From assembly GCA_049678505.1 (NCBI GenBank), contig JBAUEH010000111.1, positions 3,626 through 67,625 of the forward strand: a stretch of DNA of 64,000 nucleotides. The letters are read 5' to 3'. The translations under genes and the position numbers were made by a program. Shown here in pieces: positions 5,407 through 48,782 of this stretch. Source of the DNA: Candidatus Acidiferrales bacterium. GTDB taxonomy: Bacteria; Acidobacteriota; Terriglobia; Acidiferrales; UBA7541. How positions within the stretch are numbered: the stretch's first letter is position 1; each line of letters begins with the position of its first letter. A model generated the notes under the pieces. It worked only from the letters and a program-made list of their open reading frames with translations. It did not search any database and had not been told where the DNA came from.

Positions 5407-5421
5407 AGCAAGGAGCTAACA

Positions 5422-6429: not shown

Positions 6430-6445
6430 CGGAGACAGGAACAAG

Positions 6446-7750: not shown

Positions 7751-7780
7751 AGCCGTTTCGCGAGCGAAAGGAGACGATGT

Positions 7781-8563: not shown

Positions 8564-8602
8564 CCGAATAGTGAAAAATATCGTCCGATAGGGAGAACAA
8601 AA

Positions 8603-9700: not shown

Positions 9701-9728
9701 CCGAATTGGAGCGGCTTGAAAAATCGGA

Positions 9729-9760
9729 GGCCCGGGCATGAAAAGCCCGGGTCTTTTTTT
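9729..9760 (+). terminator. intrinsic terminator after the PDZ gene
   Basis: GGCCCGGGC-atgaaaa-GCCCGGGTC followed by TTTTTTT. Confidence 0.65.
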
Positions 9761-9773
9761 GCGAGAATCCGCG

Positions 9774-11125: not shown

Positions 11126-12017
11126 GCTTGTGGATGTTGATTGTACCATTGAACGAGGACAATTCCAGCTTGGCGCGCCCCTCATTCAGGCTGCCAAACA
11201 GGGTTTTTGCGAATCGGGGCGGACGCTGATTGGGGTGGGACGGCGGAACAAGTTTCGCCTGATTATCGACCTTCCCGTAGAGAGAAGTTGCGTTCACGTC
11301 AAAAGAGTCGCCGGCTGAAAAACGGACGTTGATCGGACCGCTGTAATTTTTCAGGTGATATACACCGTTAGGCAGGAAGTCGCCGTCGAGAAGAATATTG
11401 CCTGTCGATGTCTGCGCGAAAATGTTGGAGCTGTGATCATCGACGAGGCGCAGGTCGCCACTAATGGAATGCACCTCAATGCGACCCGTGCAGCGCATGC
11501 ACTGGAAAGGGCCGCCAACCGTTTGAACCACCAGATACCCGCCTATATCCTCGGCATCGACGCCGGCAGCGACCGTTTCCACATTCATATCGCCGAGGAT
11601 ATTGGAAACGCTGATGCTGCCAGAATCGCTGTGCACTTGCAGTTCGGAATCCTCCGGCACAGTGATCACGTAATTGGCGCGTAGCTCATCGGGCGAGATG
11701 TTCTCGGCCAGCAGGTGGGTTACGACGTCGACGCGGTTGCCAACTTGCTCGGCATCCACTTCAATTTTTTCGCTATCGTGATCGGCGACCACCATTACCG
11801 TCGGCTTATTCCAGGACGAGATCACGACCGTGCCGCTTGGGTTATGCAGGGTGATCAGCGGATGGGTCTGCACCGTGAATTGCTTCTCCAAATGATGAGC
11901 AAATGCCGGGGAGGCGCAGACAAATAACAGGGCGGAGCCAAACAACACAGCCGCACTGTTTTCCGCAACTCGCCACATTGGTTTCAACGATGTCGACGAT
12001 ATCATGGGAGGCTCCAT
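11118..12017 (-). CDS. DUF4097 domain protein
   Basis: Signal peptide, then repeats SGSISVSNILGDMNV, TGRIEVHSISGDLRL, TSTGNILLDG and SFNGTINIH. The start overlaps the anti-sigma stop by 1 nt. Confidence 0.75.
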   Translation of the reverse strand: MEPPMISSTSLKPMWRVAENSAAVLFGSALLFVCASPAFAHHLEKQFTVQTHPLITLHNPSGTVVISSWNKPTVMVVADHDSEKIEVDAEQVGNRVDVVTHLLAENISPDELRANYVITVPEDSELQVHSDSGSISVSNILGDMNVETVAAGVDAEDIGGYLVVQTVGGPFQCMRCTGRIEVHSISGDLRLVDDHSSNIFAQTSTGNILLDGDFLPNGVYHLKNYSGPINVRFSAGDSFDVNATSLYGKVDNQAKLVPPSHPNQRPPRFAKTLFGSLNEGRAKLELSSFNGTINIHKRD

Positions 12018-12676
12018 TACCGCTCCGCACTCTCTGCCATGGTTGCCAAGAGATCCGCTTTCTGCTGGTACGCCGTATACAAATAATCGCGCGTCATCTC
12101 GTTTTGAGGATCTTCGCGAACGCTCTTTTCACACATGGAAATCATATTGTCAACAATGGCGAGGTTATGATTCAGAGTGGTGGTCACATCGTTGCCTTGC
12201 GCTTGGAGCGCCGGAACGGTTTTTGTCTCGGCGGTGCTCAATTCCGCGTCCACCGGAGCCATGGTCGTTTGCGCGCGCTGCAGCCACATGGCTTCCTGAT
12301 CGGCGCGGTTGGTAGTCTTCATCTGCACGCCAAGCACGGCAGCACCTACGATGACAAGCGACAGATAGGCACCCGCGAGAGCCGGCCGGAAAGCACCAAA
12401 GGCCCCGAGGCGCGTCCACCATCCTGCGCTGGGTCGCAGGCTCGGTGTGCGAATCAGGCCTTCTTTTTCCAACTGCGATCTGATTGCGAGCCAGACTTGA
12501 GCAGGAGGCTCGACCTCGGGCAGGAGCGCGCTGGCATTGCGAATCATCTCCAGGTCAGCGATCAGAGCGCGACAGCGTGCGCATCCCGCCATGTGCGATG
12601 CGGCCACGGGATTACGTTCGCCATCCATCCACTCGCCGCTGATTTGCCGGAATTCGTCACAACGCATCGGTGCCAT
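12017..12676 (-). CDS. anti-sigma factor (zf-HC2, single TM)
   Basis: MRCDEFRQ...HMAGCARCRALIADL motif and TM helix AGAYLSLVIVGAAVLGV. It starts 5 nt after the sigma stop. Confidence 0.75.
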   Translation of the reverse strand: MAPMRCDEFRQISGEWMDGERNPVAASHMAGCARCRALIADLEMIRNASALLPEVEPPAQVWLAIRSQLEKEGLIRTPSLRPSAGWWTRLGAFGAFRPALAGAYLSLVIVGAAVLGVQMKTTNRADQEAMWLQRAQTTMAPVDAELSTAETKTVPALQAQGNDVTTTLNHNLAIVDNMISMCEKSVREDPQNEMTRDYLYTAYQQKADLLATMAESAER

Positions 12677-12681
12677 GGCGT

Positions 12682-13335
12682 TCAGTCCTCGCCCGCAGCG
12701 TCCTGTTTGAAAGCCTGACGCTCATCGCGAGCTTTTTGCCTTTCGGTCTCATGGAGAAGATCTCTCAATCTCATGCGAGCCTTATGCAGTTGCGACTTCG
12801 AATTGCCGATGGAGCAGCCCATAATATCCGCGATCTCGTTGTGCTCGTAGCCTTGCACATCGTGCAGCACAAACACCGCCTTGTAGCCAGCCGGCAACTG
12901 ATCCACGGCCCGTTGCAGGTTCACGCGGTCGATCGAACCGCTGAGCCCTAGGTCGGGGCCGCCGAAATCCCTGCGTGGGCCGCCGCTCTCTTCATCCGGT
13001 TCGGTTACTTCCTCGAGAGAAGTCTCCGAGCCGGTCTTCTTGCGCAACCGCATCAGCACTACGTTAACGGCAAGTCGATGAAGCCATGTCGAAAAGGCAG
13101 ATTCGCCGCGGAAGGTGCTGATTTTTCTAAACAGCTGCAGAAAGGCTTCTTGAGTCAAGTCCTCTGCTTCAGCCGTGTTTCCGACCATCCGCAAGCACAA
13201 TGAGTAAACGCGGCGCTGGTGAATCTGATAGAGCCGCTCAAAAGCCGCCGCATCACCCTGCTGCGCCAGGCGGATCGCATCCGCTTCCGGCACTTCGCCG
13301 TTTTCGATTCGCCTCGTTCGGGCCACGATACCCAA
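12682..13335 (-). CDS. ECF sigma factor
   Basis: Region 2 ([23 protein letters not shown]...[17 protein letters not shown]) and region 4 ([41 protein letters not shown]). Confidence 0.85.
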
Positions 13336-24970: not shown

Positions 24971-27900
24971 ATGAGATTTGGCAAGCTGGCGGCAATTCTA
25001 CTGTTTGCGACCGTGATCGCGGGTTGTGGCGGTAACTCCCAGACTATAACTGTGACGATTAGTCCAACCGGAGCCACGGTCGTGCGGACCGGTACGCAGC
25101 AGTTTACTGTGGCCGTTGCTGGAATTTCCAACACGCTGGTTACTTGGTACGTGTGCAATCCCGCTCCAGCAACCATTGCGACAGGTTCATCCACGGTTGC
25201 AAACCTTGTCCTACCCACGGGATGCGTTGCGGGTGGAAACACAACCCTGGGAGCAATTACGGTAACAGGCCTTTACACTGGTCCTGCGGCATTGCCTCCC
25301 AATGCGATGGTCAGTATATTGGCAGTGAGCCAGGGCAATACCGATTACTATGCTATCGTCGACGTAACCATCGATTCCGGCGTCCGCGTTGCAGTGACTC
25401 CTGCGTCTGTGACCATGGGCACACTTGAGCAATTCCAATTCGACGCCACCGTTTCGGGAAACACGAATACGTCAGTCAGTTGGGCCGTAGACGGCATCGC
25501 GAATGGTAACTCGACGGTAGGTACGATCACACCAACGGCTTGCACGGTTTCCATGCCGATCACGCCAATATCGTCGAACCCAGTGCCGCCCGGAACGAGT
25601 TACGGTTGCTACATCGCTTCTTCGACGCCGCAGTCTTCCGTTACCATCACGGCTACCGCCGCCGCCGACACCAGCCAATCAGCACAATCAGCCGTGACCG
25701 TTATCTCGGCAACGGATTCGTCGTTCAGCACCAACATACCGCTGGAACCTACAGCGGCAGTAGAGGGCTCCGCCCAACAGGACGTCTATCTTTTTGGCAG
25801 CAATTTCTTTACAACAAGTCAGGCAGAGGTGGATGGTGCGCCTGTCCCGACTACATTCATCAACACTGGCACGCTTCGCGCCACGATTCCCGGCAATTTC
25901 TTCTCTGGCCCTGTTCCTGCTGGGCTTCCCATCACCATCGAGCGTCAGAACGGCGATGTGATTCAGCCTGTCCTCCTAGCCGTCCAGCCCACGCGGCCCG
26001 CGGTCACGGCGTTAAGTCCGCAGAGTTTTCCGACTTCCACCTCTTCGGGAACGCTTGACTTGAACGGCGGCTACTTTTCCTCGTCTACGCAGGCGAGCTC
26101 CGAGGGTACGTCGCTGCCAGCCACTGTGGTAAACAGCCGCCAACTGCAGGTGACGCTGTCGAGTCCGAATTTCTCATTTTCGACTCCGGGCTTGGTCCCC
26201 ATCCTGGTTCAAAATACCGACGTGCCCAGCGGATCTCCATTTCTTTCTTCTGTGAATGTGGCGATTTCTCCTTCCGCAGTCAATATTCCTACGTCGGCGA
26301 ATACGCCCATTGCCGTCGGCACGCAGCCGATCGCCGTGGGTATTGATTCGGCTTTGGGCATTGCCGCGGTCGTCGACGAGGGCAACGGGAGCGGCGGAGC
26401 GGTTTCGTTGTTCAACCTGGACACGAATTCAGTGCTGGGCACAGTGTCCGTGGGAAACACACCGACGAGCGTCGGTGTGGACGACATCCTTCACTTAGCA
26501 GCCGTTGTAAACAGCGCGGACAATACTCTATCCATTATAAATTTACAGAGTGAGTCGCTGGCTTCTACCGTGGCGCTTCCATCGAACCCGACGGGAACGA
26601 CCCCTGCGCCGTTGCCATATGCTATCGGCGTAAATCCACTTACCCATCGCGCGGTGATTGCCTATTCATCTTCGAATATCGCCACTATTTTCGATCTTTC
26701 GACAAATCCCCCCAGCCTGGTTTGCACATTGGGCGGTTCTGATCCAACGATGCCAAACAACTGCGCTGTCACGGCCAATTCGAATACGCGCCCGGTGAGC
26801 ACTGGGCCGACGCCGTCCATTGCCGTTGAGCCGCAATTGAATTGGGCGGTCGTAACGCCGGGTGGCTCGGGTTCCGTTTCCATTGTGGATTTGGGAACCT
26901 CCGCCACTGCCAATCAAGTTGCGCGCGTGCCCAACGCGATCGCGACTTTCGTCAATATTTCAACGAGCATACGCGGCGTCGCAATCAATACGGAGACGGA
27001 AGAAGCACTGCTTGTCGATCCAAACGTTTCGACAATGACTGCGTTCAGTGTCCTCGATCAGACCGTCAGCAGTTTCTCGTTGTCGCAGGGCTTTGTTGCC
27101 GTCGCCGTGAATCCACTTACCGATGTCGGCGTTGCGGTGAACGGAGCAGGGGGAACAGCTTGGGTCATCGATTTGGGCACCCTCAAGCCAATCGGGAACA
27201 GCATTCCCGTGGGGACATCGCCGCAAGCGGTTGCCATTGATCCGGGGAAGAACGTTGCAGTCATCGCGAATACCGGAAGCAACACCATTTCCATTCTTCC
27301 GTTGGGCTCGATTCTCACCCCCCAGATCACCGAGGTTAGTCCCGGGAATACGTATAGCGCCCCATCTTCAGGCCCGCTTACGGTAACTGTGAACGGTTTC
27401 GGATTTTCTTCGGGCGCTCAAGTGCGCCTGGATGGCACCGCCGTGCCCACCACGATCAGTTCAAACGGCCGGCAGGCCGTTGCAACCGTTCCTGGGAGCA
27501 TGCTGACATCGGCGCGCCGGTACACTCTGGACGTTTTGAATTCCGGTGGCGCGAGCTCCAACGTAAGGCGCTTCTTTGTGGTCGGTACCGTGCCTATCGG
27601 AGTGAACCCGATCGGTGTGGCCATCGATTCCGATTTAAACGAGGCCTTGGTCACCAGCCAGGGTCCGACCGCTGGCACTGCAGGCACATGCACGGGCCCT
27701 GGCTCGGTTTCGGTCGTTGACCTTGCAACCGCATTGGTAGGGAACACGCTAACGGTCGGGACATGCCCGGAAGGCGTGGCCGTTCTGCCGCGGCTGGGCC
27801 TAGGAGTTGTCGCAAACAATGGGAGCCAAGACGCGACGGTGGTTGACTATGTGAACAACCTCGTGGATTCTACCGTTAGCGTGGAATTAAATCCTGCGGG

Positions 27901-28543
27901 AGTCGCGATTCAGCCGGATACTGCCTTGTCGCTTGTCGCCAATAGCAGCATGAGTTCCAATTCTGTTTCGGTTTTTACGATCAACTCCACTTCAGCCACA
28001 ACTACGGCGAGTGCGGTTTCGGTCGATCAGGTTCCGTTTGGCCTTGCGGTCGATCCCATTGACAACGTCGGCGTCGTTACGGCCAGTGGCCAGAACATGG
28101 TTGACGGACTCAGTCTTACGTCCTCCTCGGCATTCCTATCTGGCCGAGTGCAGGGTTTCGAAAATCCATTGGACGTGACGTTCGATCCCATCACCGATAC
28201 ATTTCTTGTCGCCGACAGCCTGAACAATCAGATCGGCATCGTCGATGCCAAAACGCTTGTGCTCACTCCGTTCCGGGTAGGCATCGATCCTACGGCCATC
28301 GCGTACAATTTCCAGAGCGGCACGGGCGTGACGGTCAATCAGGCCACCAACACGCTTTCGATATTCAATTTCGTTGCTACTAACCCGCCGAATTCGCAAC
28401 TCATGATAAACACGGCGCAAGTCGAAATTATTCTGCCGTTCGGCGGGTCAGCGGAATTTTCGGTGGCTGTCAATCCGCTTACTAACGTCGCCACCGTAGT
28501 GGACCAGGCGAACGGCCGATTGTTGCTGATTCCTTTGCCTTGA
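24971..28543 (+). CDS. large surface lipoprotein with Ig-like (Big_2-type), IPT/TIG-like and YVTN beta-propeller repeats
   Basis: 1190 aa with lipobox LLFATVIAGCGG. It has Ig-like units (GTQQFTVAVAG...VTWYV; LEQFQFDATVSGNTNTSVSWAV), IPT-like units (PQITEVSPG...VNGFGFSSGAQVRLDG) and many YVTN-type units (VGTQPIAVGID, VGNTPTSVGVD, VGTSPQAVAID, IGVNPIGVAID, VGTCPEGVAV). Confidence 0.8.
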   Translation: MRFGKLAAILLFATVIAGCGGNSQTITVTISPTGATVVRTGTQQFTVAVAGISNTLVTWYVCNPAPATIATGSSTVANLVLPTGCVAGGNTTLGAITVTGLYTGPAALPPNAMVSILAVSQGNTDYYAIVDVTIDSGVRVAVTPASVTMGTLEQFQFDATVSGNTNTSVSWAVDGIANGNSTVGTITPTACTVSMPITPISSNPVPPGTSYGCYIASSTPQSSVTITATAAADTSQSAQSAVTVISATDSSFSTNIPLEPTAAVEGSAQQDVYLFGSNFFTTSQAEVDGAPVPTTFINTGTLRATIPGNFFSGPVPAGLPITIERQNGDVIQPVLLAVQPTRPAVTALSPQSFPTSTSSGTLDLNGGYFSSSTQASSEGTSLPATVVNSRQLQVTLSSPNFSFSTPGLVPILVQNTDVPSGSPFLSSVNVAISPSAVNIPTSANTPIAVGTQPIAVGIDSALGIAAVVDEGNGSGGAVSLFNLDTNSVLGTVSVGNTPTSVGVDDILHLAAVVNSADNTLSIINLQSESLASTVALPSNPTGTTPAPLPYAIGVNPLTHRAVIAYSSSNIATIFDLSTNPPSLVCTLGGSDPTMPNNCAVTANSNTRPVSTGPTPSIAVEPQLNWAVVTPGGSGSVSIVDLGTSATANQVARVPNAIATFVNISTSIRGVAINTETEEALLVDPNVSTMTAFSVLDQTVSSFSLSQGFVAVAVNPLTDVGVAVNGAGGTAWVIDLGTLKPIGNSIPVGTSPQAVAIDPGKNVAVIANTGSNTISILPLGSILTPQITEVSPGNTYSAPSSGPLTVTVNGFGFSSGAQVRLDGTAVPTTISSNGRQAVATVPGSMLTSARRYTLDVLNSGGASSNVRRFFVVGTVPIGVNPIGVAIDSDLNEALVTSQGPTAGTAGTCTGPGSVSVVDLATALVGNTLTVGTCPEGVAVLPRLGLGVVANNGSQDATVVDYVNNLVDSTVSVELNPAGVAIQPDTALSLVANSSMSSNSVSVFTINSTSATTTASAVSVDQVPFGLAVDPIDNVGVVTASGQNMVDGLSLTSSSAFLSGRVQGFENPLDVTFDPITDTFLVADSLNNQIGIVDAKTLVLTPFRVGIDPTAIAYNFQSGTGVTVNQATNTLSIFNFVATNPPNSQLMINTAQVEIILPFGGSAEFSVAVNPLTNVATVVDQANGRLLLIPLP

Positions 28544-28730: not shown

Positions 28731-29339
28731 ATGAAGGTTCGATATTCACTCGTGACGGTGTTTGCCGTCCTTCTGGCCATTCCGGCTGCATGGGCACAAA
28801 CCGGCGCTTCCGCGGATGCGCCCGCCGAAAAGGTCGCTGTAATCAGCCTCCAAGAAGCTATCACTAGCACAGCGGAAGGCAAGCAAGCGTCGCAGCAACT
28901 TACAGCACAATTCGCTCCGCGCGTGACTGAATTGCAAAATATTCAAAGGCAGCTTCAGGATATCCAGCAGCGCCTTCAGGCTGGCGCCAACACGCTCAGC
29001 GCTGAGGAGAGCGCGCGCCTCGAGCGCCAGGGCGCCGAACTGCAACGCAAAGGTCAGCGCGAACAACAGGATCTAACGGACGACCGGAACGATGCATCTC
29101 AGGACGCCATCAATCACATCGGGCAGAGGATGATACCCATCCTCAACAAATACGCCAAACAAAATGGCTACGGCGTTGTCTTTGACGATTCGGCGACGAA
29201 TACCCCAGTCGTTTACCGTGCTGACCAGACGGACATCACCCAGCAAATCATCAAGCTCTACGATGAAGCCTACCCGGTTAAGGCGGCAACTTCTCCTGCT
29301 GCTCATCCGGGAACTCCAAAGTCGCCGCAGAAACGGTAA
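28731..29339 (+). CDS. skp: OmpH/Skp-family periplasmic chaperone
   Basis: 202 aa, signal peptide, long Q/E/R-rich helical region (NIQRQLQDIQQRLQ...LERQGAELQRKGQREQQDL). The size and position near bamA are typical. Confidence 0.8.
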   Translation: MKVRYSLVTVFAVLLAIPAAWAQTGASADAPAEKVAVISLQEAITSTAEGKQASQQLTAQFAPRVTELQNIQRQLQDIQQRLQAGANTLSAEESARLERQGAELQRKGQREQQDLTDDRNDASQDAINHIGQRMIPILNKYAKQNGYGVVFDDSATNTPVVYRADQTDITQQIIKLYDEAYPVKAATSPAAHPGTPKSPQKR

Positions 29340-35208: not shown

Positions 35209-36183
35209 ATGCCCCGCACGATTCAACCACCGTCAATCGATGGCGCGCTTGTTGTCGACAAGCCGGCGGGCAAAACCTCTCACGACGTTGTTGAGGCGGT
35301 ACGCCGGCTCATCGGCTTCCGCCAGATCGGGCATCTCGGCACTCTGGACCCGCTCGCCACGGGTGTACTGGTTCTCCTGCTTGGCCGGGCCACGCGCCTC
35401 GCGCGTTTTTATTCCGGGCGTCGCAAGCGTTACAACTGCGCGGTGCGTTTCGGCGTCGCCACGGACACGTATGATTCTGACGGCGAGCCGCAAGGCCCCG
35501 ATCTCGCGCCATCCCTTGACCGCGGCACCATCGAACGTTTTGCGGCCGGCTTCGCAGGACGCATTGAGCAGACGCCACCGGCATTTTCGGCGAAAAAAAT
35601 TCATGGACGCCCGGCGCACGAGCTGGCACGCAAGAAAAAGCCGGTCGATCTGAAGCCTGTGGATGTGGATGTCTACGAATTCCGGCTCACAGCCATAGAA
35701 GGATCGCTCGCGCGCTTCACGATTGAATGCGGCGCCGGGACGTATATCCGCTCCCTGGCGCATGAGCTAGGCAAGCTGGAAGGTTCGGGAGCGCATCTTT
35801 CTGAAATCACCCGCACCGCCGTCGGCGAGTTCACTCTGGACCAGGCCGTCAGCGTCAACGAACTGGCTGAAACGGTTCGCTCGGCGCGGCTTTCCGACCG
35901 CGTGATTCCTATGGAAGGTTTGCTTTCGGAGATGCCCCGGGTTACCGTTCTGCCGGTGATCGAACGCCGAATTCTCCACGGAGCCAAATTCAATGTCACT
36001 ATCGCGCAGATACAGCCGGGTCGCGTGAGTGCAGCACAAGGCGCGACCACGGCCTTGGACTCTGGTGAACAGCAGGGCGCGCGCCTTCGCGTTTTTAATG
36101 CACAGGAGCGCCTTATCGCCATCGCCGAGGCCGTTGTCCCCCGCACTTACCAGCCTCTTGTGGTGCTCGAGTCGACGCCATAA
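35209..36183 (+). CDS. truB: tRNA pseudouridine(55) synthase TruB
   Basis: Contains GALVVDKPAGKTSHDVV, the catalytic Asp motif GHLGTLDPLATGVL, and QTPPAFSAKKI. Confidence 0.9.
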   Translation: MPRTIQPPSIDGALVVDKPAGKTSHDVVEAVRRLIGFRQIGHLGTLDPLATGVLVLLLGRATRLARFYSGRRKRYNCAVRFGVATDTYDSDGEPQGPDLAPSLDRGTIERFAAGFAGRIEQTPPAFSAKKIHGRPAHELARKKKPVDLKPVDVDVYEFRLTAIEGSLARFTIECGAGTYIRSLAHELGKLEGSGAHLSEITRTAVGEFTLDQAVSVNELAETVRSARLSDRVIPMEGLLSEMPRVTVLPVIERRILHGAKFNVTIAQIQPGRVSAAQGATTALDSGEQQGARLRVFNAQERLIAIAEAVVPRTYQPLVVLESTP

Positions 36184-39129
36184 TCAAGGCACCGGCCGGA
36201 AACCTGCGGACGACCCTCCCGCATAGATTGGCTTTCCTGTCTTCGGACTCCGCTGCACGACGTGCGGCGTCAACAGGATCAGCAATTCGGTGCTGCTGTT
36301 CTGCGTGTTGGAAGCACTTGCCGCCAGCGCCAGCGGTCCCAGTGCTTCCGCTCCGGGCGTCCCATTAATGGCCTGCATCTCCGTGGATTCGATGATCCCC
36401 GCGAGCGCTGTTGTTTGCTCCGCCTTGGTGCTAACCGTTTGTTCCACGGTCTCGTTGCTAATCACCGGGATTTCATTCACGGTGCTGCCGGTGAGGCTTC
36501 GCAGCTCGAAATGCAAGTCCAACGTGACATTTCCACCCGCCTGAATGTACGGCGTAGCTTTGATTTTCAATCCAATGTCTTCATACTCTGCAGAGGGATA
36601 AGGAGTCGACGCCACGCCGGTTCCGTTCGGGCTGAACGTTGCATTGTCCAGGATGATGGTCAGCTCATTCGCCGTTGAATTGGCGATCGCCAAGCCTGGT
36701 GGACTGGTAGTGCCCAGAAAATCGGCTGAAACGAGTCCCACAGGAGCGCTGCCCGCCGGTAAAATGAGCGGTGTCGCGAAAGTCCCGTCTCCGTTTCCTA
36801 TGAGAATGGACACGGTGTCTGCGTCTTGGTCCGTCACCGCCAGGTCCGGCAGCCCGTCCACGTTGAAATCTCCCTCGGTGATCGCGACGGGTTTGTTCCC
36901 GGCTGCAGATGCATTGTTCAGCACGAATGTTTCCCCCTGCGTGAACGTGCCGTCGCCGTTGCCCAAGTAAACCAAAAGGGTGTCGTCCGTCTGATTCACC
37001 ATCGCCAGATCGATGTTCGTGCTGTTATCCAAATCGAACTGCCCTGCGGCAATGGCCACGGGAGTGTTTCCTGTGACCAGTGTGGTTAAGTTTATGAACG
37101 TGCCATTCCCATTGCCTAGGAAGACTGAAACCGTGTTCGCCGTTTGGTTCGTTACCGCAAGATCGAGTTTGCCATCGTTGTTGAAGTCAGCCGTCGCAAT
37201 CGCTGAGGGTGCCGCGCCGGTGGTAAACTTCGCTTGCGGTTGGAACGTGCCATCTCCATTGCCCAGCAAAATCGAAACAGTGTTGTCTGTTTGATTGACC
37301 ACCGCCAAATCGATGTATCCGTCGTCGTTGAAATCCCCGGACACAATCGCCACCGGATTCTTCCCTGTCGCGAACGTGCCTTTCAGCGTAAATGTCCCGT
37401 CACCATTGCCCAAGAAAATTGAAACCGTATTGTCTGTCTGATTGACAACCGCTAGGTCCGGAATGCCGTCACCATTGAAGTCGGCGGTCACCGCAGCTAT
37501 CGGTCCTTGCCCCGTTGCCAGGGTCCCGTTGCTGTTGAACGTCCCATTCCCGTTGCCCAACAAAATGGAAACTGTGTTATCCGTATGATTCACCACCGCC
37601 AAGTCGACATTTCCATCCCCATTGAAATCCGCCGTGATGACGGCGACGGGATCCTGTCCCGTCGCGACCGTCGACTCGGGAAAGAGGCTCGATGAAACTG
37701 CCGAAATGAAACCCGGTGAGGTTAAGCTTGAGGAATACTGCGCCAGATCGATCGGCACACGTTCGCCTGCAAAAAAGGTGGTTGGTTTGCCATCTTCCGC
37801 GCGCAACACCACACGGCGTCCGGTCCGCACCGTATTTAGCATGTCGGAAAACGCCGCTGCGGCCCCAGGCAGCGTCGCCAGGAACGTTGTTTTGCCTCCG
37901 CCAAAAGCCACCAGCGGCGGTATCAGCGAGCCAATGCCTACCGTTCCTTCTCCAATTAGTGATGCCAATTGCGTCGTGCTCACTCCTGATAAGCTGCTCC
38001 CTGTTCCGAATAGTTGCTGGATCACGGAAACCAGTCCCGCTGCTCCTTGTTGCGCTTCCTGAATCTGCTGCGAGCTCAGCGTGAAGGCCTGCGCTGTCTG
38101 CGGGGGCGTGATGCCGAGCTGCGTGGCCGCATTGCGGTCCACTTCCAGTATTTCCATTTCAAGTACCACTTCGCCATGCGGCTGCTCTAATTGATCCAGC
38201 AACTGCGCCGCCACGGAAATCGCTTGCGGCGAAGCGCGCATGGTTATCGTTCGACTCGCCAGATTCAACTCGGCGCGGTTAATCCCTGCTATCTCGCGCA
38301 CCGTGCGGACCTCCTGCGTCATTTCATCGTTTGAGTCCGCCGCCGGCAATTGCACCGTGCGCACAACCGAGAGGTCATAGGCCCGTCTCTTCTCCGGCGT
38401 ATCAGCGGCAACGAAGAACAACCGTGACGTTAGCGGCCGCCAGAAACTTCCGGTCATGTCTCCCAACACTCGCATGGCCGTCTCGAAATCCACATTCTCA
38501 ATCCTCAGGTGAACCGCTCTCGATTGCAGGTCCACATCGAACGAAGCCTCCACGCCAAATTCGCGCGCCACCTCTTCGTACGCGCTCGCCGTATCGCCGT
38601 GAAAGTCGAAGCTTTTCGTGCCCGTTAGCGGTTTCAAACGCACTACGCCTGCCGGTTCCAGCATCAATGTTCGCAGCGTTTCCGCCGACGAAGGCGCCAG
38701 TTGCGCCAGCCGCTCGCGCACGATTTCGTCGCCTGGATCGAGCACTAGCGCCGCGTGCAGTTCATGGCGCGCTTCGGCCATGCTGCCCATCAGCGCGTCT
38801 TGCTCGGCGCGATCAACCTCTTCGCCCACGACCTTGCCCCGCGCGATTTCGCGCCGCAGCAAATATTCGTGACTCGTCGAATCCTGCCGGACGGCTTCCG
38901 AATACGCCGCGAACGCCAGCAGCCAATTTGCTTCCTTCTCTGCCTTCAATCCTCTCTGGTATGCAGCCTTTGCCTGCTTCGCATCCTGCGGCTTATTCGT
39001 CACGCTTTTCGCGGACGGCGCCTGCTGGCCCGCTGGAGCAGGCTTCGCCGGCGTCGGCGTTTGCGCGTTGGTAACGGCCGCAGCGCAAAGAAAAAGTGCA
39101 ATGAGTATGTTCGAGCGCAAGGAAATCAA
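36184..39129 (-). CDS. secretin-family outer-membrane channel protein with an inserted seven-repeat FG-GAP/VCBS-like module
   Basis: 981 aa. Signal peptide, a TPR-like helical region, secretin-N-like domains, and the start of the secretin domain (VVLEMEILEVDRNAATQLGI ... VVLRAEDGKPTTFFAGERVPI). Seven FG-GAP-like repeats follow. Then comes the secretin end (YEDIGLKIKATPYIQAGGNVTLDLHFELRSL ... IPVISNETVEQTVS ... ELLILLTPHVV). Confidence 0.8.
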   Translation of the reverse strand: MISLRSNILIALFLCAAAVTNAQTPTPAKPAPAGQQAPSAKSVTNKPQDAKQAKAAYQRGLKAEKEANWLLAFAAYSEAVRQDSTSHEYLLRREIARGKVVGEEVDRAEQDALMGSMAEARHELHAALVLDPGDEIVRERLAQLAPSSAETLRTLMLEPAGVVRLKPLTGTKSFDFHGDTASAYEEVAREFGVEASFDVDLQSRAVHLRIENVDFETAMRVLGDMTGSFWRPLTSRLFFVAADTPEKRRAYDLSVVRTVQLPAADSNDEMTQEVRTVREIAGINRAELNLASRTITMRASPQAISVAAQLLDQLEQPHGEVVLEMEILEVDRNAATQLGITPPQTAQAFTLSSQQIQEAQQGAAGLVSVIQQLFGTGSSLSGVSTTQLASLIGEGTVGIGSLIPPLVAFGGGKTTFLATLPGAAAAFSDMLNTVRTGRRVVLRAEDGKPTTFFAGERVPIDLAQYSSSLTSPGFISAVSSSLFPESTVATGQDPVAVITADFNGDGNVDLAVVNHTDNTVSILLGNGNGTFNSNGTLATGQGPIAAVTADFNGDGIPDLAVVNQTDNTVSIFLGNGDGTFTLKGTFATGKNPVAIVSGDFNDDGYIDLAVVNQTDNTVSILLGNGDGTFQPQAKFTTGAAPSAIATADFNNDGKLDLAVTNQTANTVSVFLGNGNGTFINLTTLVTGNTPVAIAAGQFDLDNSTNIDLAMVNQTDDTLLVYLGNGDGTFTQGETFVLNNASAAGNKPVAITEGDFNVDGLPDLAVTDQDADTVSILIGNGDGTFATPLILPAGSAPVGLVSADFLGTTSPPGLAIANSTANELTIILDNATFSPNGTGVASTPYPSAEYEDIGLKIKATPYIQAGGNVTLDLHFELRSLTGSTVNEIPVISNETVEQTVSTKAEQTTALAGIIESTEMQAINGTPGAEALGPLALAASASNTQNSSTELLILLTPHVVQRSPKTGKPIYAGGSSAGFRPVP
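36625..37677 (-). repeat. seven tandem ~49-codon FG-GAP-like coding repeats inside the secretin gene
   Basis: Consensus TG..P.A....DFNGDG..DLAV.NQTDNTVSI.LGNGDGTF. Five copies are very regular and two are degenerate. Confidence 0.8.
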
Positions 39130-39270
39130 CCTTTTGCTATCTTACACAGATTGGAAGGAGGCACGTGAAGTTGCCTGGACTTGTGCCGCGAAAGCTAAGC
39201 CTCGCGCCTGCTTCCCGCAACAGAAGTCTGCTGCAGACGCGCCGCTTCAGCGCTTGTCAGGGCATTTCCC

Positions 39271-39299
39271 TTGCTTCTGGCGCTTCCTCGGGGTACACT
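39271..39299 (+). promoter_or_regulatory. putative promoter of the FTR1 cluster
   Basis: TTGCTT (39271-39276), a 17-nt spacer, and TACACT (39294-39299). Confidence 0.35.
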
Positions 39300-39306
39300 C
39301 GAATTT

Positions 39307-39331
39307 CTAGTTGATACATAGTGTCAACTAG
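39307..39331. promoter_or_regulatory. 25-bp near-perfect palindrome (candidate operator) at the predicted transcription start
   Basis: CTAGTTGATAC-ATA-GTGTCAACTAG has 11-bp arms with one G:T position. It begins about 8 nt after the -10. Confidence 0.45.
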
Positions 39332-39347
39332 CTGGGATTACCGATCC

Positions 39348-40610
39348 ATGCTTTCTGCTCTCTTAATCGCTCTCCGTGAAGGCGTCGAGGCCGCCCTTGT
39401 TGTCGGCATCGTCCTAGTTTATCTCAATCGCACTGGTCGTCGCGCGCTGGCTCGTTATGTATGGGTAGGTGTCGCTCTTGCGGTCGTCGTTAGCTTCGCG
39501 GCAGCCGTCCTGCTTCAGCGCTGGCAGATCAGCGAAGACGGCTTTGAGGGCATCCTCATGCTCTTGGCCGCGGTCCTCGTTGTTTCCATGATCGTCTGGA
39601 TGAACCGCGTCGCCCGCCGCTTGCGCAAGGAGATCGAGCAGCGCATCGAGCGTTATGCGCAACAGAGCGAGCGCTTTGCGGGTTGGGGAATCGGCTTTTT
39701 CGTTTTTCTGATGGTTCTTCGCGAAGGCGCCGAACTCATCCTGATTCTGCGCGCTGTGGAGCTGTCCATCGCCGGCCTGCAAGTTTGGATCGGCACGGGC
39801 GTGGGCATCACGCTCGCCGTGGCCGTGGGAGTCTTTTTCTTTCAGGGCACTTTGAAAGTGCCTCTCAGCCGTTTCTTTGCCGCGACCAGCATCATCCTGA
39901 TGGTCGTGGCTTTCCAGCTTGCCCTCACCGGCCTTCACGAAATGAGCGAGGCGCTCTGGCTGCCTTCGAGCGCCCGCGAAATGGCCACCGTGGGCCCTAT
40001 CGTTCGTAATGAATACTTCTTTTTCGTCGTTATTTTGGCGGTGACCGCCATCGTTGTTCTTCGCGAATGGTTCGCGCTCCGCGCCGCTGCGGCGAACTCC
40101 ATCGAGAATCCCGCCGAAAAGCGTCTTCGCCAATATGAACATCGCCGCCGTAGCATCTGGACCGCCGCGACGGCATTTCTCTGCCTGGTGGTCATTCTTT
40201 CCTTGACCGCTGAATTCGTCTACACACGCGCATCGGCTGCTCCGCCCGAAGCTGAAAAACTCGTTGCTGCGGGAAACATTGTCCGCATTCCGGTGGCGGA
40301 GATGAACGGCGTGGATCTTCATTTCTACGCCATGGATGTGCAGGGCTCGTCGGTTCGGTTCCTGGTGATCCGCAAGCCCAACGGCCAGTATGCCACCGCG
40401 CTCGATGCCTGCCAGATTTGCGGCGCCATGGGTTTTCGTCAGGAAGGTTCGATGCTGATTTGCCGCAATTGCGGCGCGCCGATTAATGCCGTCGAAGTCG
40501 GCATGCCCGGCGGCTGCAATCCCATCGCCTTCCCGTCACACGTGGACGGCGCGAACATCGTCATCGACGTCTCCGCGATCTCCGCCGCTGTTTCGGAAAT
40601 TAAGAAATGA
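39348..40610 (+). CDS. FTR1-family iron permease fused to a C-terminal four-Cys DUF2318-like domain
   Basis: REGVE (MLSALLIALREGVEAAL) and REGAE (MVLREGAELILIL) permease motifs and multiple TM helices. The C-terminal soluble domain carries ACQICG...CRNCG. The start was set at ATG 39348 because this N-terminus resembles E. coli EfeU as I recall it (MFVPFLIMLREGLEAAL). GTG 39321 is also in frame. Confidence 0.8.
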   Translation: MLSALLIALREGVEAALVVGIVLVYLNRTGRRALARYVWVGVALAVVVSFAAAVLLQRWQISEDGFEGILMLLAAVLVVSMIVWMNRVARRLRKEIEQRIERYAQQSERFAGWGIGFFVFLMVLREGAELILILRAVELSIAGLQVWIGTGVGITLAVAVGVFFFQGTLKVPLSRFFAATSIILMVVAFQLALTGLHEMSEALWLPSSAREMATVGPIVRNEYFFFVVILAVTAIVVLREWFALRAAAANSIENPAEKRLRQYEHRRRSIWTAATAFLCLVVILSLTAEFVYTRASAAPPEAEKLVAAGNIVRIPVAEMNGVDLHFYAMDVQGSSVRFLVIRKPNGQYATALDACQICGAMGFRQEGSMLICRNCGAPINAVEVGMPGGCNPIAFPSHVDGANIVIDVSAISAAVSEIKK

Positions 40611-41927: not shown

Positions 41928-43063
41928 TGTTCAAACGCCTTCTTCTGCATTTGCTTCGTGGAAATCGCGTGCGCCTGACCGTCGCGTTGCTCGCGCTCAC
42001 TAGCGGCGCCACGGTTGTTTCCGCGCTCATGAATCTCGACGTCGATATCAATCGTAAACTCGCGCAGGAATTTCGCTCCCTCGGCGCGAATCTCGTCGTC
42101 TCTGCGCCATCCTCGATAGCGTCGAATACAGCTTCTTCCGCGTTGTTCGACGCTTCCGCCATGCGAGCCGTCGACTCGCTGCAATCATCCGGCGTCGTCG
42201 CGTCTCCCTATCTTTACCTAGTTGCGCGCACCGGCTCCACTCCCGGTCGCGAGGTCGTGGTCGCTGGCGCGTGGCTCGATCGCATCGCTCAAATGTCTCC
42301 CTGGTGGCAAATCGCGGGCGACTCATCTGTTTCGCGCACCGACCCTTCGCATTGCCTAATCGGACGCAACGTCAGCCGTAGCCTCGCCCTTTCCACCGGC
42401 GGCACATTTGCGCTCAGTTACGAAAGTCGCACCGCGAATCTCATCATCGCGGGCATCGTCGACGCCGGCGGCCCCGAAGACAATCAGATCTTCGTGAACC
42501 TGCCCGTCGCTCAGACGCTCGCCGGGGCTGCTGGCAAAGTCCAGCTCGTCCAGCTCAGTGTTCCCGGTTCACCCGACGAGGTTCGCACCGTGCAATCTCA
42601 TCTGCAATCCGTGCTCCCTGCTCTCCTCGTCAAGCCCATTCCGCAAATCACCGAGGCGGAAGGCAAGCTGCTCCGCCGCATTCGTTTTTTAATTTTTTCA
42701 ACGGGCCTGCTCATCTTGGTGCTCACTGCGCTCTGCCTCGTGGCCACCATGGCTGCGCTTGCCATGGAACGCCGCAAAGATGTCGGCTTGATGAAAGCCC
42801 TCGGCGGTTCCATGCAAAAGGTGCTTCGAATTTTTCTGGCCGAAGTCGGCATCATGGCGTTCGCCGGAGGGATTCTCGGGTATGGTTTTGGCATGCTGCT
42901 TTCCGTTTGGATGGGATACCGCGTTTTCGGGGCGAGTATCACGCCGCGTTGGGAAGTGCTTCCGGCAACCTTGGTTCTGATGCTCTTCGTCGCGTTTGCC
43001 GGCGCGCTCCCTTTGCGGCTGCTGGGCAACGTTCGCCCGGCCGTTATTTTGCGTGGAGAATAA
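41927..43063 (+). CDS. FtsX/MacB-type ABC transporter permease (second copy)
   Basis: 378 aa with the same architecture (RRKDVGLMKALGGSM). The start overlaps the previous stop. Confidence 0.8.
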   Translation: MFKRLLLHLLRGNRVRLTVALLALTSGATVVSALMNLDVDINRKLAQEFRSLGANLVVSAPSSIASNTASSALFDASAMRAVDSLQSSGVVASPYLYLVARTGSTPGREVVVAGAWLDRIAQMSPWWQIAGDSSVSRTDPSHCLIGRNVSRSLALSTGGTFALSYESRTANLIIAGIVDAGGPEDNQIFVNLPVAQTLAGAAGKVQLVQLSVPGSPDEVRTVQSHLQSVLPALLVKPIPQITEAEGKLLRRIRFLIFSTGLLILVLTALCLVATMAALAMERRKDVGLMKALGGSMQKVLRIFLAEVGIMAFAGGILGYGFGMLLSVWMGYRVFGASITPRWEVLPATLVLMLFVAFAGALPLRLLGNVRPAVILRGE

Positions 43064-43067
43064 GAAA

Positions 43068-44135
43068 GTGCCGCTTGTTGAAGTTGCGAACTTGAAAAAA
43101 TCTTTCGGCGAAGTCCGCGCGCTCAATGGTGTTTCCTTTTCCGTCGAAGCCGGCGAATGGATCGCCATCATGGGGCCCTCGGGCTCCGGCAAGACCACGC
43201 TCATCAATATTCTTGGCGGCCTGGACACTCCCACGGAAGGCAGCGCCCTCGTCGATGGCGTCGACGTTGGCCGGCTCAACGAATTCGGCCTCACGCGCTT
43301 TCGCGCCGAGAAAATCGGCTTCGTCTTCCAGCAATTCCATCTCGTGCCGTACCTCAGCGCACTCGAAAACGTTATGCTCGCCCAATATTTCCACAGCACC
43401 ACGGACGAATCGGAGGCCGCCACAGCACTGCGCCGCGTTGGCCTCGGCGACCGCCTCACGCATCTTCCCTCGCAGCTCTCCGGAGGAGAACAGCAGCGCG
43501 TAGCTGTCGCTCGCGCGCTGATCAATCATCCCAAGCTGATTCTCGCCGACGAGCCCACGGGCAACCTCGACGAAGCCAACGAAGAGACCGTCATTCACCT
43601 TCTTCGCGAGCTCCATGGCGAAGGTCATACGATCTTCATGGTCACGCACGATCCATCCATTGGCAGCCTCGCCGACCGTCGCGTTGAGCTCGCCCACGGT
43701 CGTCTTGCGCAAATCACGATCTACTCCGCTGAGGACGAAGCCCGTTTCGATCACGTCCTCGAGGAGCTCTGGCTCTGCGCGGAGATTGGCAAGCGCGCCA
43801 AGCTGGCGCGTTTCCATTCGCTCGACCCTGACCCGGAACGCACCATTCAACGCCTCTCCGTTGTCGGCCTCGTGAGTTTGCAGGACTCCGAAGTCGAGTT
43901 GACCGATCGCGGTCAGCGCCGCGCTCGCGGCGTCGTGCGCCGGCGCCGTCTCGCCGAGCGCCTGTTCACGGATACGTTTTCCATCGCGAACGCCGAAGCC
44001 GATTCGCAAGCCTGCAAGTTCGAGCACATCATTAGCCCGGAACTCGACGAACGCATCTGCTCTTTCCTCGGCCATCCGAAGACCTGCCCTCACGGCAAAC
44101 CCATCCCTCCAGGCCCCTGCTGTCCCTCGAAATAA
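43068..44135 (+). CDS. ABC transporter ATP-binding protein fused to a DtxR/MntR-like (wHTH plus metal-binding dimerisation) module
   Basis: Walker A GPSGSGKT, signature [15 protein letters not shown], Walker B [12 protein letters not shown], H-loop VTHD. The C-terminal ~135 aa contain [12 protein letters not shown]...ACKFEHIIS...[8 protein letters not shown]. GTG 43068 lies 4 nt after the upstream stop, and the track start at 42996 overlaps the permease. Confidence 0.8.
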   Translation: [355 protein letters not shown]

Positions 44136-47016: not shown

Positions 47017-47454
47017 TCAGACTGTCACAGCCGCCGTGCAAAACGCGCACTTCGTCGCTTTCAGCGGAATCGTCGACAAGCAATACGGACAATTCTTGGT
47101 CGTCGGCGTCGGTGGCGGCCCGGGCTTGGTGGTCCACCGATTGATTTGTTTCACCACCAGAAAAATCACGAACGCCACAATCAGGAAATCAATCACCGTA
47201 TTGATGAAGGTCCCGTAGTTGATCGTCGCCGCTCCGGCTGCTTTCGCGGCGGCGAGCGTCGGATAGCCTGTACCAGAAATGTTGAAAAACCGATCGTTGA
47301 AGTCCACTTTTCCCAGGAGCAGCCCGATCGGCGGCATAATCACATCGCTCACCAGCGAAGTCACGATCCTCCCGAACGCCGCGCCGATGATGATGCCAAC
47401 GGCCATGTCCATTACATTGCCCTTCATCGCAAATTCTTTGAATTCTTTCAGCAT
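47017..47454 (-). CDS. mscL: large-conductance mechanosensitive channel MscL with a Cys4 C-terminal tail
   Basis: [31 protein letters not shown]...VIMPPIG is the canonical MscL N-terminus and TM1. The tail is [29 protein letters not shown]. Confidence 0.9.
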
Positions 47455-47674
47455 AGAGTTTCCTTTCCCATTCTCGCAGCCTTCGCATTTTCAAAAGATG
47501 TTTTGATTCGGTGGGCTGGGGCCCAAGGTAAGCAATCGCGCGCATTATACTGCCATTTGTGATTCGCGCTGCATTCCAGTAAATTTGCAGAAGGAACGAG
47601 GGCGAGTTTTCAAACCCGTCCTTCTGTAGCTCTCGCCATGCTAGAATGCCTTTCCTTTTGCTCTGAATCATTGC

Positions 47675-48634
47675 GTGTTGCAGCAGAATCCAATACTTCG
47701 GGAGCGTTTCGTGCACAAAGTGGTCATTATCGGCAGCGGTTGCGCTGGTCTCACTGCCGCCATTTACGCCGCGCGAGCCAATTTGAAGCCCATCGTCATT
47801 GACGGCTTCGAGCCCGGCGGCCAGCTCACTCTCACCACCATGGTCGAGAATTTCCCCGGCTTTCCCAGCGGCATTCTCGGCCCGGAGCTCACCGAAGCCA
47901 TGCGCAAACAAGCCCAGCACTTCGGCGCTGAATTCCGCGCCGGTGCGGTCACTTCCGTTGATTTGAAGAAACGCCCGTTCAAGATCGAAGCGGTGAAAGA
48001 ACAATTCGAAGCCGAAACGCTCATCGTTGCCGCAGGCGCTTCCGCGCGTCTTCTCGGCCTCGAATCTGAGCGCCAGCTCATCGGCCACGGCGTTTCCACT
48101 TGCGCCACCTGCGACGGCTATTTTTTTCGCGGCAAGGAAATCGCCGTCGTAGGCGGCGGTGACACCGCCATGGAAGAGGCCACTTTCCTCACGCGTTTCG
48201 CGAAGAAAGTGAACATTCTTCACCGCCGTCGCGACTTTCGCGCCTCCAAAATTATGCTCGACCGCGCCCGCGCCAACGATAAGATTCGCTTTGTCACGCC
48301 GGTGGTTGTCGAAGAGGTTCTCGACCCGTCCAAACAAAGCGTCGAAGCCGTCAAACTTCGCAATCTCGACGACAACAAAACATCGATTCTTCCTCTCGAT
48401 GGTTTGTTCGTCGGCATTGGCCACAAGCCCAACACAAAAATCTTTCGCGATCAGCTCGACATGGACGACACTGGCTACCTCAAGACCCATCATGGCAGCC
48501 GTACCAACGTCGAAGGAGTTTTCGCTGCTGGCGACGTGCAAGACAAAGTCTATCGCCAGGCTATCACCGCCGCCGGTTCCGGCTGCATGGCTGCCATGGA
48601 CGCCGAAAGATTCCTCGAATCTCAGTCCCACTGA
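47675..48634 (+). CDS. trxB: thioredoxin-disulfide reductase
   Basis: FAD motif VVIIGSGCAGLTAA, redox-active CATCDG, NADPH motif VVGGGDTAMEEA. The start could instead be GTG 47711. Confidence 0.9.
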   Translation: MLQQNPILRERFVHKVVIIGSGCAGLTAAIYAARANLKPIVIDGFEPGGQLTLTTMVENFPGFPSGILGPELTEAMRKQAQHFGAEFRAGAVTSVDLKKRPFKIEAVKEQFEAETLIVAAGASARLLGLESERQLIGHGVSTCATCDGYFFRGKEIAVVGGGDTAMEEATFLTRFAKKVNILHRRRDFRASKIMLDRARANDKIRFVTPVVVEEVLDPSKQSVEAVKLRNLDDNKTSILPLDGLFVGIGHKPNTKIFRDQLDMDDTGYLKTHHGSRTNVEGVFAAGDVQDKVYRQAITAAGSGCMAAMDAERFLESQSH

Positions 48635-48782
48635 CGGATTGGCATCCGGACGAGAGGGCGGATCGAACACATTTCCTTAACGTCGCAACCGTCGCTCGCT
48701 TTCATACGTCTTTTGCTCTCATGACAGACTCGCGACTGCATTGCAAACGCGCGCGAATGCCTTTATTCTTCTTCCGGCCCTG

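Follow-up and report, generated by a model that had tools for sequence, protein, structure and literature searches.

We analysed a 64-kb stretch of DNA from an uncultured soil acidobacterium (Candidatus Acidiferrales, contig JBAUEH010000111.1), referred to here as the window, and within it one minus-strand gene that encodes a secretin-family protein of 981 amino acids (aa). The secretin domain of this protein is interrupted by an insert of approximately 345 aa that is predicted to fold as a seven-bladed FG-GAP beta-propeller. An earlier note, made from the letters of this stretch, had proposed an insertion between two secretin halves, and our analysis bears this out and places the insert more precisely, inside Gate 1 and between its two hinge glycines. 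Domain borders were taken from an AlphaFold2 monomer built from 40 homologs, with a mean predicted local distance difference test (pLDDT) score of 72; the propeller was mostly above 90, while the barrel and the gate arms were modelled at moderate or low confidence only. The gene and its parts, all on the minus strand, are as follows.

36184..39129, minus strand: whole gene, secretin-family protein with propeller insert, 981 aa; TTG start, stop at 36184-36186 (list of open reading frames (ORFs), Pfam, full-length homologs).
39064..39129, minus strand: Sec-type signal peptide, aa 1-22 (MISLRSNILIALFLCAAAVTNA, with probable cleavage before Q), read from the translation.
38701..38982, minus strand: TPR-like helical region, aa 50-143 (AlphaFold2 helices, pLDDT 80-92).
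38401..38622, minus strand: periplasmic N-domain A, aa 170-243, with alternating strands and helices (AlphaFold2, pLDDT 71-91).
38176..38400, minus strand: N3-like domain, aa 244-318, ending at the N3/secretin junction HGEVVLEMEILEVDRNAATQLGI (weak HMMER alignment, weak Secretin_N match).
37765..38175, minus strand: first part of the secretin domain, aa 319-455, with the first barrel strand, the lip region and the hairpin 434-445/450-460 up to G455 in FFAGERVPI (Pfam profile positions 16-45 after excision of the insert).
37672..37764, minus strand: Gate 1 proximal arm, aa 456-486 (ERVPIDLAQYSSSLTSPGFISAVSSSLFPES); an alignment by eye pairs it with the first ~28 residues of the gate loop (40 aa) in the insert-less relative P0158.
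36640..37671, minus strand: seven-bladed FG-GAP beta-propeller, aa 487-830 (Pfam, AlphaFold2, Foldseek, motifs).
36574..36639, minus strand: Gate 1 distal arm, aa 831-852 (TFSPNGTGVASTPYPSAEYEDI), leading to G853; it aligns to NPFxTVERKDIG of XcpQ and to pIV 286-297.
36250..36573, minus strand: second part of the secretin domain, aa 853-960, with inner and outer barrel strands, the Gate 2 region (LRSLTGSTVNEIPVISNETV), the degenerate equivalent of the VPxLGDIPxLG motif (INGTPGAEALGPLALAA) and the last strand ELLILLTPHVV (Pfam; PDB matches to GspD, PilQ, pIV and RcpA).

The Pfam Secretin profile (PF00263) matched the native protein at 5.4e-19 (68.9 bits against a cutoff of 27.5), with the match limited to aa 837-959 and profile positions 46-169, so that the C-terminal part supplies the rest of the domain, as had been claimed. 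Solved secretins in the PDB (XcpQ, GspD, PilQ, RcpA and pIV) also matched only this C-terminal part. These one-sided matches are the evidence in favour of an artefact, which could be a chimeric assembly, a pseudogene in decay or simply an N-terminal fusion with a secretin-like part of only 140 aa at the C-terminus. When aa 479-836 were deleted in silico, the Secretin match became contiguous (aa 442-478 joined to 837-959, profile positions 16-169) at 71.3 bits. Relatives that lack the insert gave an unbroken Secretin match (P0158 at profile positions 16-169, P0134 at 20-166, P0212 at 5-169), and the NCBIfam GspD model spanned them from N3 to the C-terminus, e.g. 273-619 of P0217 against 301-599 of 600. 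A profile of the insert-less relatives aligned in one piece to XcpQ 370-573, and to 5w68 and 5zdh across N3 and the secretin domain. The region before the repeats is therefore secretin-like, in agreement with the earlier note, and a plain N-terminal fusion is excluded because both the excision and the insert-less relatives give a contiguous Secretin match.

In the AlphaFold2 model the secretin strands before the insert were aa 320-331, 434-445 and 450-460, and the elements after it were strands 848-862, 867-884, 887-902 and 907-922, helix 927-937 and strand 939-959. A Foldseek search with the full model was dominated by propellers and returned no independent structural match for the barrel part, and the secretin assignment rests for this reason on profile evidence. 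The VPxLGDIPxLG motif was degenerate, as the earlier note had read it.

The place of the insert was determined by comparison with pIV of phage f1, where Gate 1 is the loop between hinge glycines G267 and G297, with a tip (G275-Q289) that extends to the pore centre and is presumed to seal the channel (PMC8563730). We verified the pIV numbering on chain 7ofh_A (S265-V-G267-QNVPFIT-G275...Q289-TVE-R293-QNV-G297). G455 of the window protein corresponds to pIV G267 (vGxxVP motif, here F-F-A-G455-E-R-V-P-I) and G853 to pIV G297 (ExxxvG motif, here E-Y-E-D-I-G853); both glycines were invariant in a 40-sequence alignment, as were P845, Y849 and D851. The two hinges are 397 aa apart in the window protein compared with 29 aa, counted from alignments, in pIV and XcpQ, which agrees with the earlier statement that known secretins have a short connection here. 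A regex-based count over 168 family members gave a bimodal distribution, with 28-55 aa in insert-less relatives (mode 40, n = 40) and ~300-458 aa in propeller-bearing proteins (n = 125, all but two with at least 350), while three proteins with a propeller and extra nested domains had 600-700 aa. The earlier note had allowed that the insertion might fall in a known variable loop; this is not the case, as Gate 1 is described as highly conserved across secretins (PMC8563730).

Comparison by eye with the gate loop of P0158 (GDRFPIILASFTSIFFTPDMIKAILGGTFVPPIPAVQYEDLG) showed its first ~28 residues kept before the propeller (PIDLAQYSSSLTSPGFISAVSSSLFPES) and its last ~12 after it (TPYPSAEYEDIG), and the insert appears to lie distally in Gate 1, close to the tip, at a place that corresponds roughly to the pIV tip, which is disordered. 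A full replacement of the gate hairpin by the insert was considered and rejected, since this comparison by eye finds each arm of the ancestral 40-aa loop still in place, one before and one after the propeller. Residues 459-479 of the window protein had pLDDT values below 50, and the proximal arm showed 43% identity among distant homologs.

The insert itself consisted of seven units of ~49 aa (aa 487-535, 536-584, 585-633, 634-682, 683-733, 734-786 and 787-830), which confirms the seven FG-GAP repeats of the earlier note and shows its placement at nt 36625-37677 to be correct to a few codons. Pfam FG-GAP_3 matched in six stretches (2.3e-53, 179.1 bits against a cutoff of 26.9), and Pfam FG-GAP matched at 3.4e-16 (59.2 bits against 22.1). 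AlphaFold2 placed 28 strands (7 x 4) in aa 485-826 with pLDDT mostly above 90, and the best Foldseek matches were seven-bladed propellers (probability 1.0, target-normalised template modelling score 0.7-0.8), among them ITFG2 in KICSTOR, BBS1, the LGI1 EPTP domain, the PAL lectin and integrin alpha. Both results support the proposal of a seven-bladed propeller, and the insert is, according to the model, a set of seven four-stranded blades predicted to close into a ring. Because a closed propeller has its N- and C-termini next to each other, such a domain can be spliced into a hairpin and leave the hairpin unbroken.

A calcium-loop motif, D-x-N-x-D-G-x-x-D (here D-F-N-x-D-G-x-x-D), was observed in five of the seven blades (1, 2, 3, 4 and 6), with its key residues conserved in the 40-sequence alignment, and these loops are putative calcium sites. 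The nearest solved sequence relatives found in the PDB were both glycan-binding propellers: UmbA4 of Streptomyces, whose solved complex contains teichuronic acid as ligand (9oee; the family profile gave 3e-17), and the N-acetylglucosamine lectin PAL (5mb4). The insert shares its repeat profile, calcium-loop motif and predicted seven-blade fold with the FG-GAP propellers of the integrin alpha head, ITFG2, the fungal PAL/PVL lectins and the UmbA lectin domains, but none of those is embedded in a membrane-channel domain. Tandem Repeats Finder detected no DNA-level tandem repeat in 36000-39300, and the blades are for that reason considered ancient and diverged. Recent amplification and repeat-driven misassembly were ruled out, as the blades repeat at the protein level only.

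In the N-terminal half, the residues that precede the cysteine of the signal peptide are not those of a lipobox, and a low-complexity stretch separates the signal peptide from the TPR-like helices. The TPR-like region gave weak matches to TPR_14 and to Amuc_1098/TraC N-terminal profiles, while the ortholog P0158 gave clear TPR matches at the N-terminus and the insert-less profile matched TPR proteins in the PDB. In distant homologs, N-domain A showed 62% conservation. The N3/secretin junction (aa 292-340) aligned weakly by HMMER to the XcpQ junction (5wln, 293-347); the alignment of insert-less profile A2 to this junction was clearer (E 0.0037) than that of the single protein. Secretin_N was weak in the window protein and reached 27.7 bits in the relative P0142, just below its cutoff of 28.2.

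The same layout of FG-GAP repeats and Secretin domain was observed in all of the at least 120 protein clusters listed (44-96% identity; 890-1120 aa, a few truncated entries aside). A genome scan with one genome per species recovered 468 stretches that encode relatives, of which the best 80 were used. All 80 came from Acidobacteriota metagenome-assembled genomes (MAGs), mostly Candidatus Acidiferrales (class Terriglobia), produced by independent projects, with assemblies that range from bins labelled Illumina to contigs of up to 3.7 Mb; 79 covered practically the whole 981 aa, and the other (L023) is a contig fragment. Among homologs of ~44-52% identity, the propeller was 50% identical, the C-terminal secretin part 46%, the N-terminal part 62% and the linkers 39-43%. 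Judged from these sequence identities, the propeller is constrained like the barrel and apparently under purifying selection. An assembly chimera, raised as a possible refutation in the earlier note, is ruled out by the presence of one architecture in at least 120 listed clusters and 80 independently assembled genomes, together with conserved synteny. We therefore give the artefact reading practically no weight, as it is refuted by the intact frame, the conservation, the constraint and the contiguous Secretin match.

A search of a 1.8-billion-protein library with aa 150-484 returned many insert-less relatives of 590-670 aa. These proteins (e.g. P0158, P0134, P0212 and P0217, from Terriglobales and labelled 'hypothetical protein') share with the window protein a stand-alone arrangement of TPR, two N-domains and secretin, at 30-50% identity over the aa 150-484 query, but their Gate 1 loop has 28-55 aa and carries no propeller. 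P0158 occupies the same genomic slot as the window gene, between FTR1/FtrD-FtsX-FtsX-ABC on one side and truB-rbfA-DUF503 on the other (L087/L088), and is its insert-less positional ortholog. A neighbour-joining tree built on the parts outside the insert grouped the propeller-bearing proteins in one clade with P0158 as sister, and a single insertion event in a pre-existing gene is the simplest reading. The insert-less P0134 (L083), whose gene adjoins a GBBH-like_N gene, was nested among the propeller-bearing proteins in this tree, which carries no support values, and its position may reflect a clean loss of the propeller. Further domains were nested inside the propeller insert of some relatives, including three Big_2 in P0151, two He_PIG in P0142 and three Ig-like repeats in P0124, which brings the spacing of the hinges to 600-700 aa. 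The insertion site has, by its domain content, kept gaining domains, giving a domain within a domain within a domain. Distant insert-less relatives were observed in unrelated housekeeping contexts beside a DsbC-like thioredoxin, with no secretion genes there.

The window protein belongs to the secretin superfamily by its PF00263 match above cutoff, its N3-type domain upstream (weak alignment) and its Gate 1 hinge glycines. Scores against the curated subfamilies were far lower than their cutoffs: GspD (TIGR02517) 61.9 bits against 351.35, with no gsp genes in the window; PilQ (TIGR02515) 50 bits against 284.35, with no AMIN match and no pil genes in the window or related loci; MshL 35.7 against 250; SctC 29.5 against 238; HofQ 28.9 against 554; and the Amuc_1098 family (NF042912) 12.2 against 750. 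The match to RcpA (8odn, 3.4e-10) was limited to the C-terminal barrel half, with no match to a dedicated CpaC model and no tad genes nearby. Insert-less relatives also scored low against the curated subfamilies. Database labels for homologs included 'FG-GAP-like repeat-containing protein', 'hypothetical', 'CpaC' and 'GspD', the last two given by the Joint Genome Institute (JGI). The top-scoring secretin in the profile search was PDB entry 8JVB, for which we found no describing paper, and no paper was found that reports an FG-GAP or any further kind of folded domain in the gate of a secretin, or that deals with orphan or acidobacterial secretin-propeller forms. The protein is, as far as profile scores can place it, a secretin outside every curated subfamily and part of an undescribed acidobacterial family of TPR-bearing secretins, most members of which are without the insert.

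One alternative is that the protein serves as the secretin for a machine encoded elsewhere, be it a type IV pilus, a Tad system or a type II secretion system (T2SS), with propellers that act in cis as a PilY1-type cork and are pushed aside during extension. The conserved secretin fold and hinge glycines agree with this, as do the CpaC and GspD names given by JGI and the proposal that in P. aeruginosa a single PilY1 seven-bladed propeller sits as a 'champagne cork' in the outer cavity of PilQ, where it contacts the gate and blocks the channel (PMC11525922). One propeller would thus fit the PilQ outer cavity; 12-15 would be a different matter. The propeller here is fused in cis with one per subunit, in contrast to PilY1, a separate protein delivered once per pilus on the pilus tip, and a channel would hold 12-15 propellers against one PilY1 per pilus. 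The TPR N-terminus also resembles the Amuc_1098 type IV pilus outer-membrane family, which has an N-terminal TPR-like region and a C-terminal secretin; weak matches to both ends were observed in the window protein or its relatives, but at 12-42 bits against the cutoff of 750, and Amuc_1098 itself has no propeller. Amuc_1098 sits in a pilus-like gene cluster. Here the Pfam search detected no pilus, T2SS, type III secretion system (T3SS) or Tad domains in the tested ORFs of the 64 kb, a few ORFs being without a Pfam match or identified by eye, and no pilus or secretion genes were observed in the 8-10 kb flanks of related loci. The earlier note had found no such genes in the 64 kb and had called the gene an orphan, and with these limits both statements hold for the window and the second extends to the related loci. 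Together with scores far under all curated subfamily cutoffs, these results make a machine encoded elsewhere improbable.

Compared with the canonical secretins (GspD/XcpQ, PilQ, RcpA/CpaC, pIV and InvG), the window protein has the Secretin domain, an N3-like domain with a 'vlvEa.ivEv'-type junction, the hinge glycines, Gate 2, the terminal strand and a Sec signal. It differs from them in the 397 residues between its hinges in place of 29, in a TPR-like N-terminus in place of N0 or AMIN, in the degenerate VPxLGDIPxLG and in the lack of cognate machine genes nearby. Other secretins are elaborated by the cap gate of the Vibrio-type GspD, in the beta-lip, and by the S-domain. InvG has an extended N3 loop (PMC8563730). 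All three resemble the propeller as an extra element on a conserved double barrel, but they are short and lie in the lip, N3 or the C-terminus; Gate 1 carries none of them, and none amounts to an entire folded domain.

The size of the insert bears on how such a channel could close. Canonical secretins assemble from 12-15 subunits into double-walled beta-barrels of the outer membrane, and the tips of their Gate 1 loops come together on the channel axis. The pIV particle is a 15-mer, 96 Å tall, with an inner barrel of 90 Å, an N3 ring 74 Å wide and a gate aperture of ~40 Å when closed and 65 Å when open (PMC8563730). By our own estimates, a 345-residue propeller occupies ~46,000 Å3 (~50 x 50 x 30 Å) and 15 of them ~0.7 million Å3. 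Fifteen propellers thus exceed a 90-Å-wide cylinder of the full particle height, and the Gate 1 tips therefore cannot all meet at the axis. We infer that the canonical, iris-type closure by Gate 1 would be impossible here. On opening, Gate 1 swings 'upwards and outwards' about the hinge glycines, and leaky pIV gate mutants admit antibiotics and detergent across the outer membrane (PMC8563730). The Gate 1 hairpins of the acidobacterial TPR-secretin family are 11 aa longer than those of pIV or XcpQ.

The arrangement that we regard as the most likely, though at slightly less than an even chance and with its position inferred only, is a ring of lectin-like propellers held on stalks at the mouth of the channel. 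The Gate 1 hairpins would be kept permanently in the pose of the open state, along the barrel wall as known from open InvG. They would serve as stalks, each of which carries its propeller level with the extracellular mouth or slightly beyond it. In this way the propellers would make up a multivalent lectin-like ring that caps the channel and may bind a surface ligand, e.g. a glycan or an exopolysaccharide. Such a protein would be a capped pore or a surface-display platform and not the conduit of a classical T2SS, type IV pilus or Tad machine.

Alternatively, the propellers may face the periplasm, with unfolded Gate 1 arms as tethers, and fill or hang below the vestibule. In that position they could form a permanent plug, or an anchor that binds peptidoglycan or glycans like the AMIN domains in PilQ, and the multimer would amount to either a closed scaffold or a pore under regulation. 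Because the protein folds in the periplasm, no folded domain would have to be exported; the linkers (459-479 and 831-848) have pLDDT values below 50 and show the lowest conservation, which fits flexible tethers; and the lectin-like relatives of the propeller could equally point to peptidoglycan binding. Set against this, 15 propellers (~0.7 million Å3) exceed the vestibule volume, passing the N3 ring would take a tether of at least ~65 Å while just 23 residues separate the last blade from G853, and thirty extended chains in the lumen would abolish transport. The nested domains also favour the surface, Big_2 and He_PIG being typically surface or adhesin domains. We consider the periplasmic arrangement unlikely on balance, although it is the strongest of the alternatives. 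As to placement as such, the extracellular mouth is favoured with a little better than an even chance and the periplasmic side with roughly half that weight, the remainder going to something else. The extracellular placement is favoured because it uses a known conformation and a shorter reach, and because of the nested Big_2 and He_PIG and the glycan-binding lectin relatives.

Several points weigh against the stalk-held ring at the extracellular mouth. The main objection is that an open Gate 1 leaves a hole of ~65 Å, for which a ring of 15 propellers is not an obvious seal. The folded propellers would also need to pass the outer membrane through the forming channel, and, with the ancestral hairpin still folded, the free tethers would amount to only ~0-12 residues. 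Periplasmic proteins, too, contain FG-GAP, Big_2 and He_PIG domains, and all carrier organisms are uncultured MAGs. A more specific version of the surface arrangement, which we offer as a speculation with a rather low chance of being correct, is a self-loading display platform in which each of the 12-15 subunits uses its former gate hairpin to carry its folded propeller out through the common channel, so that a multivalent lectin crown on the surface replaces the gate. If true, folded domains would reach the diderm surface by a route not known before, and a secretin would function without any inner-membrane machine.

The genes around the secretin gene were arranged in the window as bamA, a 1190-aa lipoprotein-like ORF, skp, rimP-nusA-infB-DUF503-rbfA-truB and the secretin gene. 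Divergent from it were genes for an FTR1/FtrD-like permease, two MacB/FtsX-type permeases, an ATP-binding cassette (ABC) ATPase, a GBBH-like_N protein and an amino-acid permease. The ORF list shows that the secretin gene abuts truB (35209..36183, plus strand) tail-to-tail with zero spacer, as the earlier note had described. We observed truB in 77 of 82 related loci and the FTR1 gene in 73, and in 66 of these 73 the FTR1 gene was the direct neighbour (gap of at most ~520 bp), down to 46% identity. The divergent FTR1/secretin orientation was confirmed in the window, L087, L001 and L002. One further feature lies between the two genes.

39130..39320, no strand: divergent intergenic region shared with the FTR1 operon (sequence).

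A perfect palindrome, CTAGTTGA-N9-TCAACTAG, was observed at 39307-39331, where it runs past the end of this intergenic region and overlaps the annotated FTR1 GTG start (39321); a more plausible in-frame ATG lies at 39348, with the palindrome ~20-40 nt upstream of it. The core GTTGA-N9-TCAAC was present in 14 of 66 related intergenic regions, including 7 of the 8 closest relatives examined (at least 73% identity). We regard the palindrome as a candidate operator of the iron-uptake-like operon, and perhaps also of the secretin gene on its other side. A promoter scan returned no sigma-70-type site in 36000-39500, and terminator-like matches were at background level.

This neighbourhood raises a further alternative, in which the protein is the outer-membrane partner of the adjacent iron-uptake-like system and its propellers capture or gate the substrate. 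The direct pairing with FTR1 in 66 of 73 loci, found in the same form for the insert-less P0158, speaks for such a role, as do the Pfam-confirmed domains of the FTR1/FtrD, MacB/FtsX and ABC-DtxR cluster and the palindrome in the shared intergenic region. However, collinearity across related loci extends all the way from nusA to the amino-acid permease, so that adjacency may reflect vertical inheritance only, and truB is an equally constant neighbour. A kinase gene lies between the secretin and FTR1 genes in L001 and L002, distant family members occur in unrelated contexts, and no periplasmic adaptor is encoded. We know of no secretin with an uptake role. Because of the collinearity we retain this as a rival of low probability, below a machine encoded elsewhere.

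Other features of these loci were also observed. The kinase gene of L001 (6925-9594) and L002 (6983-9650) encodes a Ser/Thr kinase, with Tricorn/PD40-type beta-propeller domains either fused to it or coming after it, and is absent from the window. The ABC ATPase of the FTR1/FtsX cluster (42996-44135, plus strand) carries a C-terminal Fe_dep_repr_C domain (DtxR-type metal-binding and dimerisation), a fusion also present in L001, L002 and L087, and its domain content suggests that the transporter may sense metal directly. The 1190-aa ORF (24971-28543, plus strand), which sits between bamA (21969-24875) and skp (28731-29339), has a lipoprotein-type N-terminus (…VIAGC), Ig-like-looking repeats and no Pfam match, and L002 contains an uncharacterised 1123-aa gene at the equivalent place beside OmpH. 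The region 4687-13335 contains two extracytoplasmic function (ECF)-type sigma-factor genes (4687-5406, Pfam-confirmed; 12682-13335, by eye), a putative anti-sigma gene (by eye), a PDZ protein and three Toastrack DUF4097 genes (6278-7750, 7781-8563 and 11118-12017), and may be an envelope-stress module. A 493-aa ORF at 47189-48670 (minus strand) had no Pfam match and an odd N-terminus, and may be a spurious frame on the opposite strand.

Taken as a whole, the locus holds one intact, conserved gene for a predicted outer-membrane secretin-family protein from an undescribed acidobacterial clade of stand-alone proteins with TPR, two N-domains and secretin. What is new is a secretin whose pore-closing loop carries a predicted complete seven-bladed propeller, in a layout conserved in related species. 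Gate 1 is the most conserved functional element of secretins, and the models for sealing and opening in T2SS, T3SS, type IV pili and filamentous phage rest on it. Here that loop holds a folded domain of 38 kDa in a natural lineage of secretins from uncultured Acidobacteriota of soil and peat, and further nested domains are tolerated in some relatives. A secretin barrel can apparently assemble and be useful without a canonical gate, and the lineage lends itself as a natural system for testing which gate elements serve assembly and which serve sealing. More broadly, the Acidobacteriota appear to contain a large family of TPR-secretins that stand alone, and if the propellers are surface-exposed, the scaffold could be an engineerable multivalent display system.

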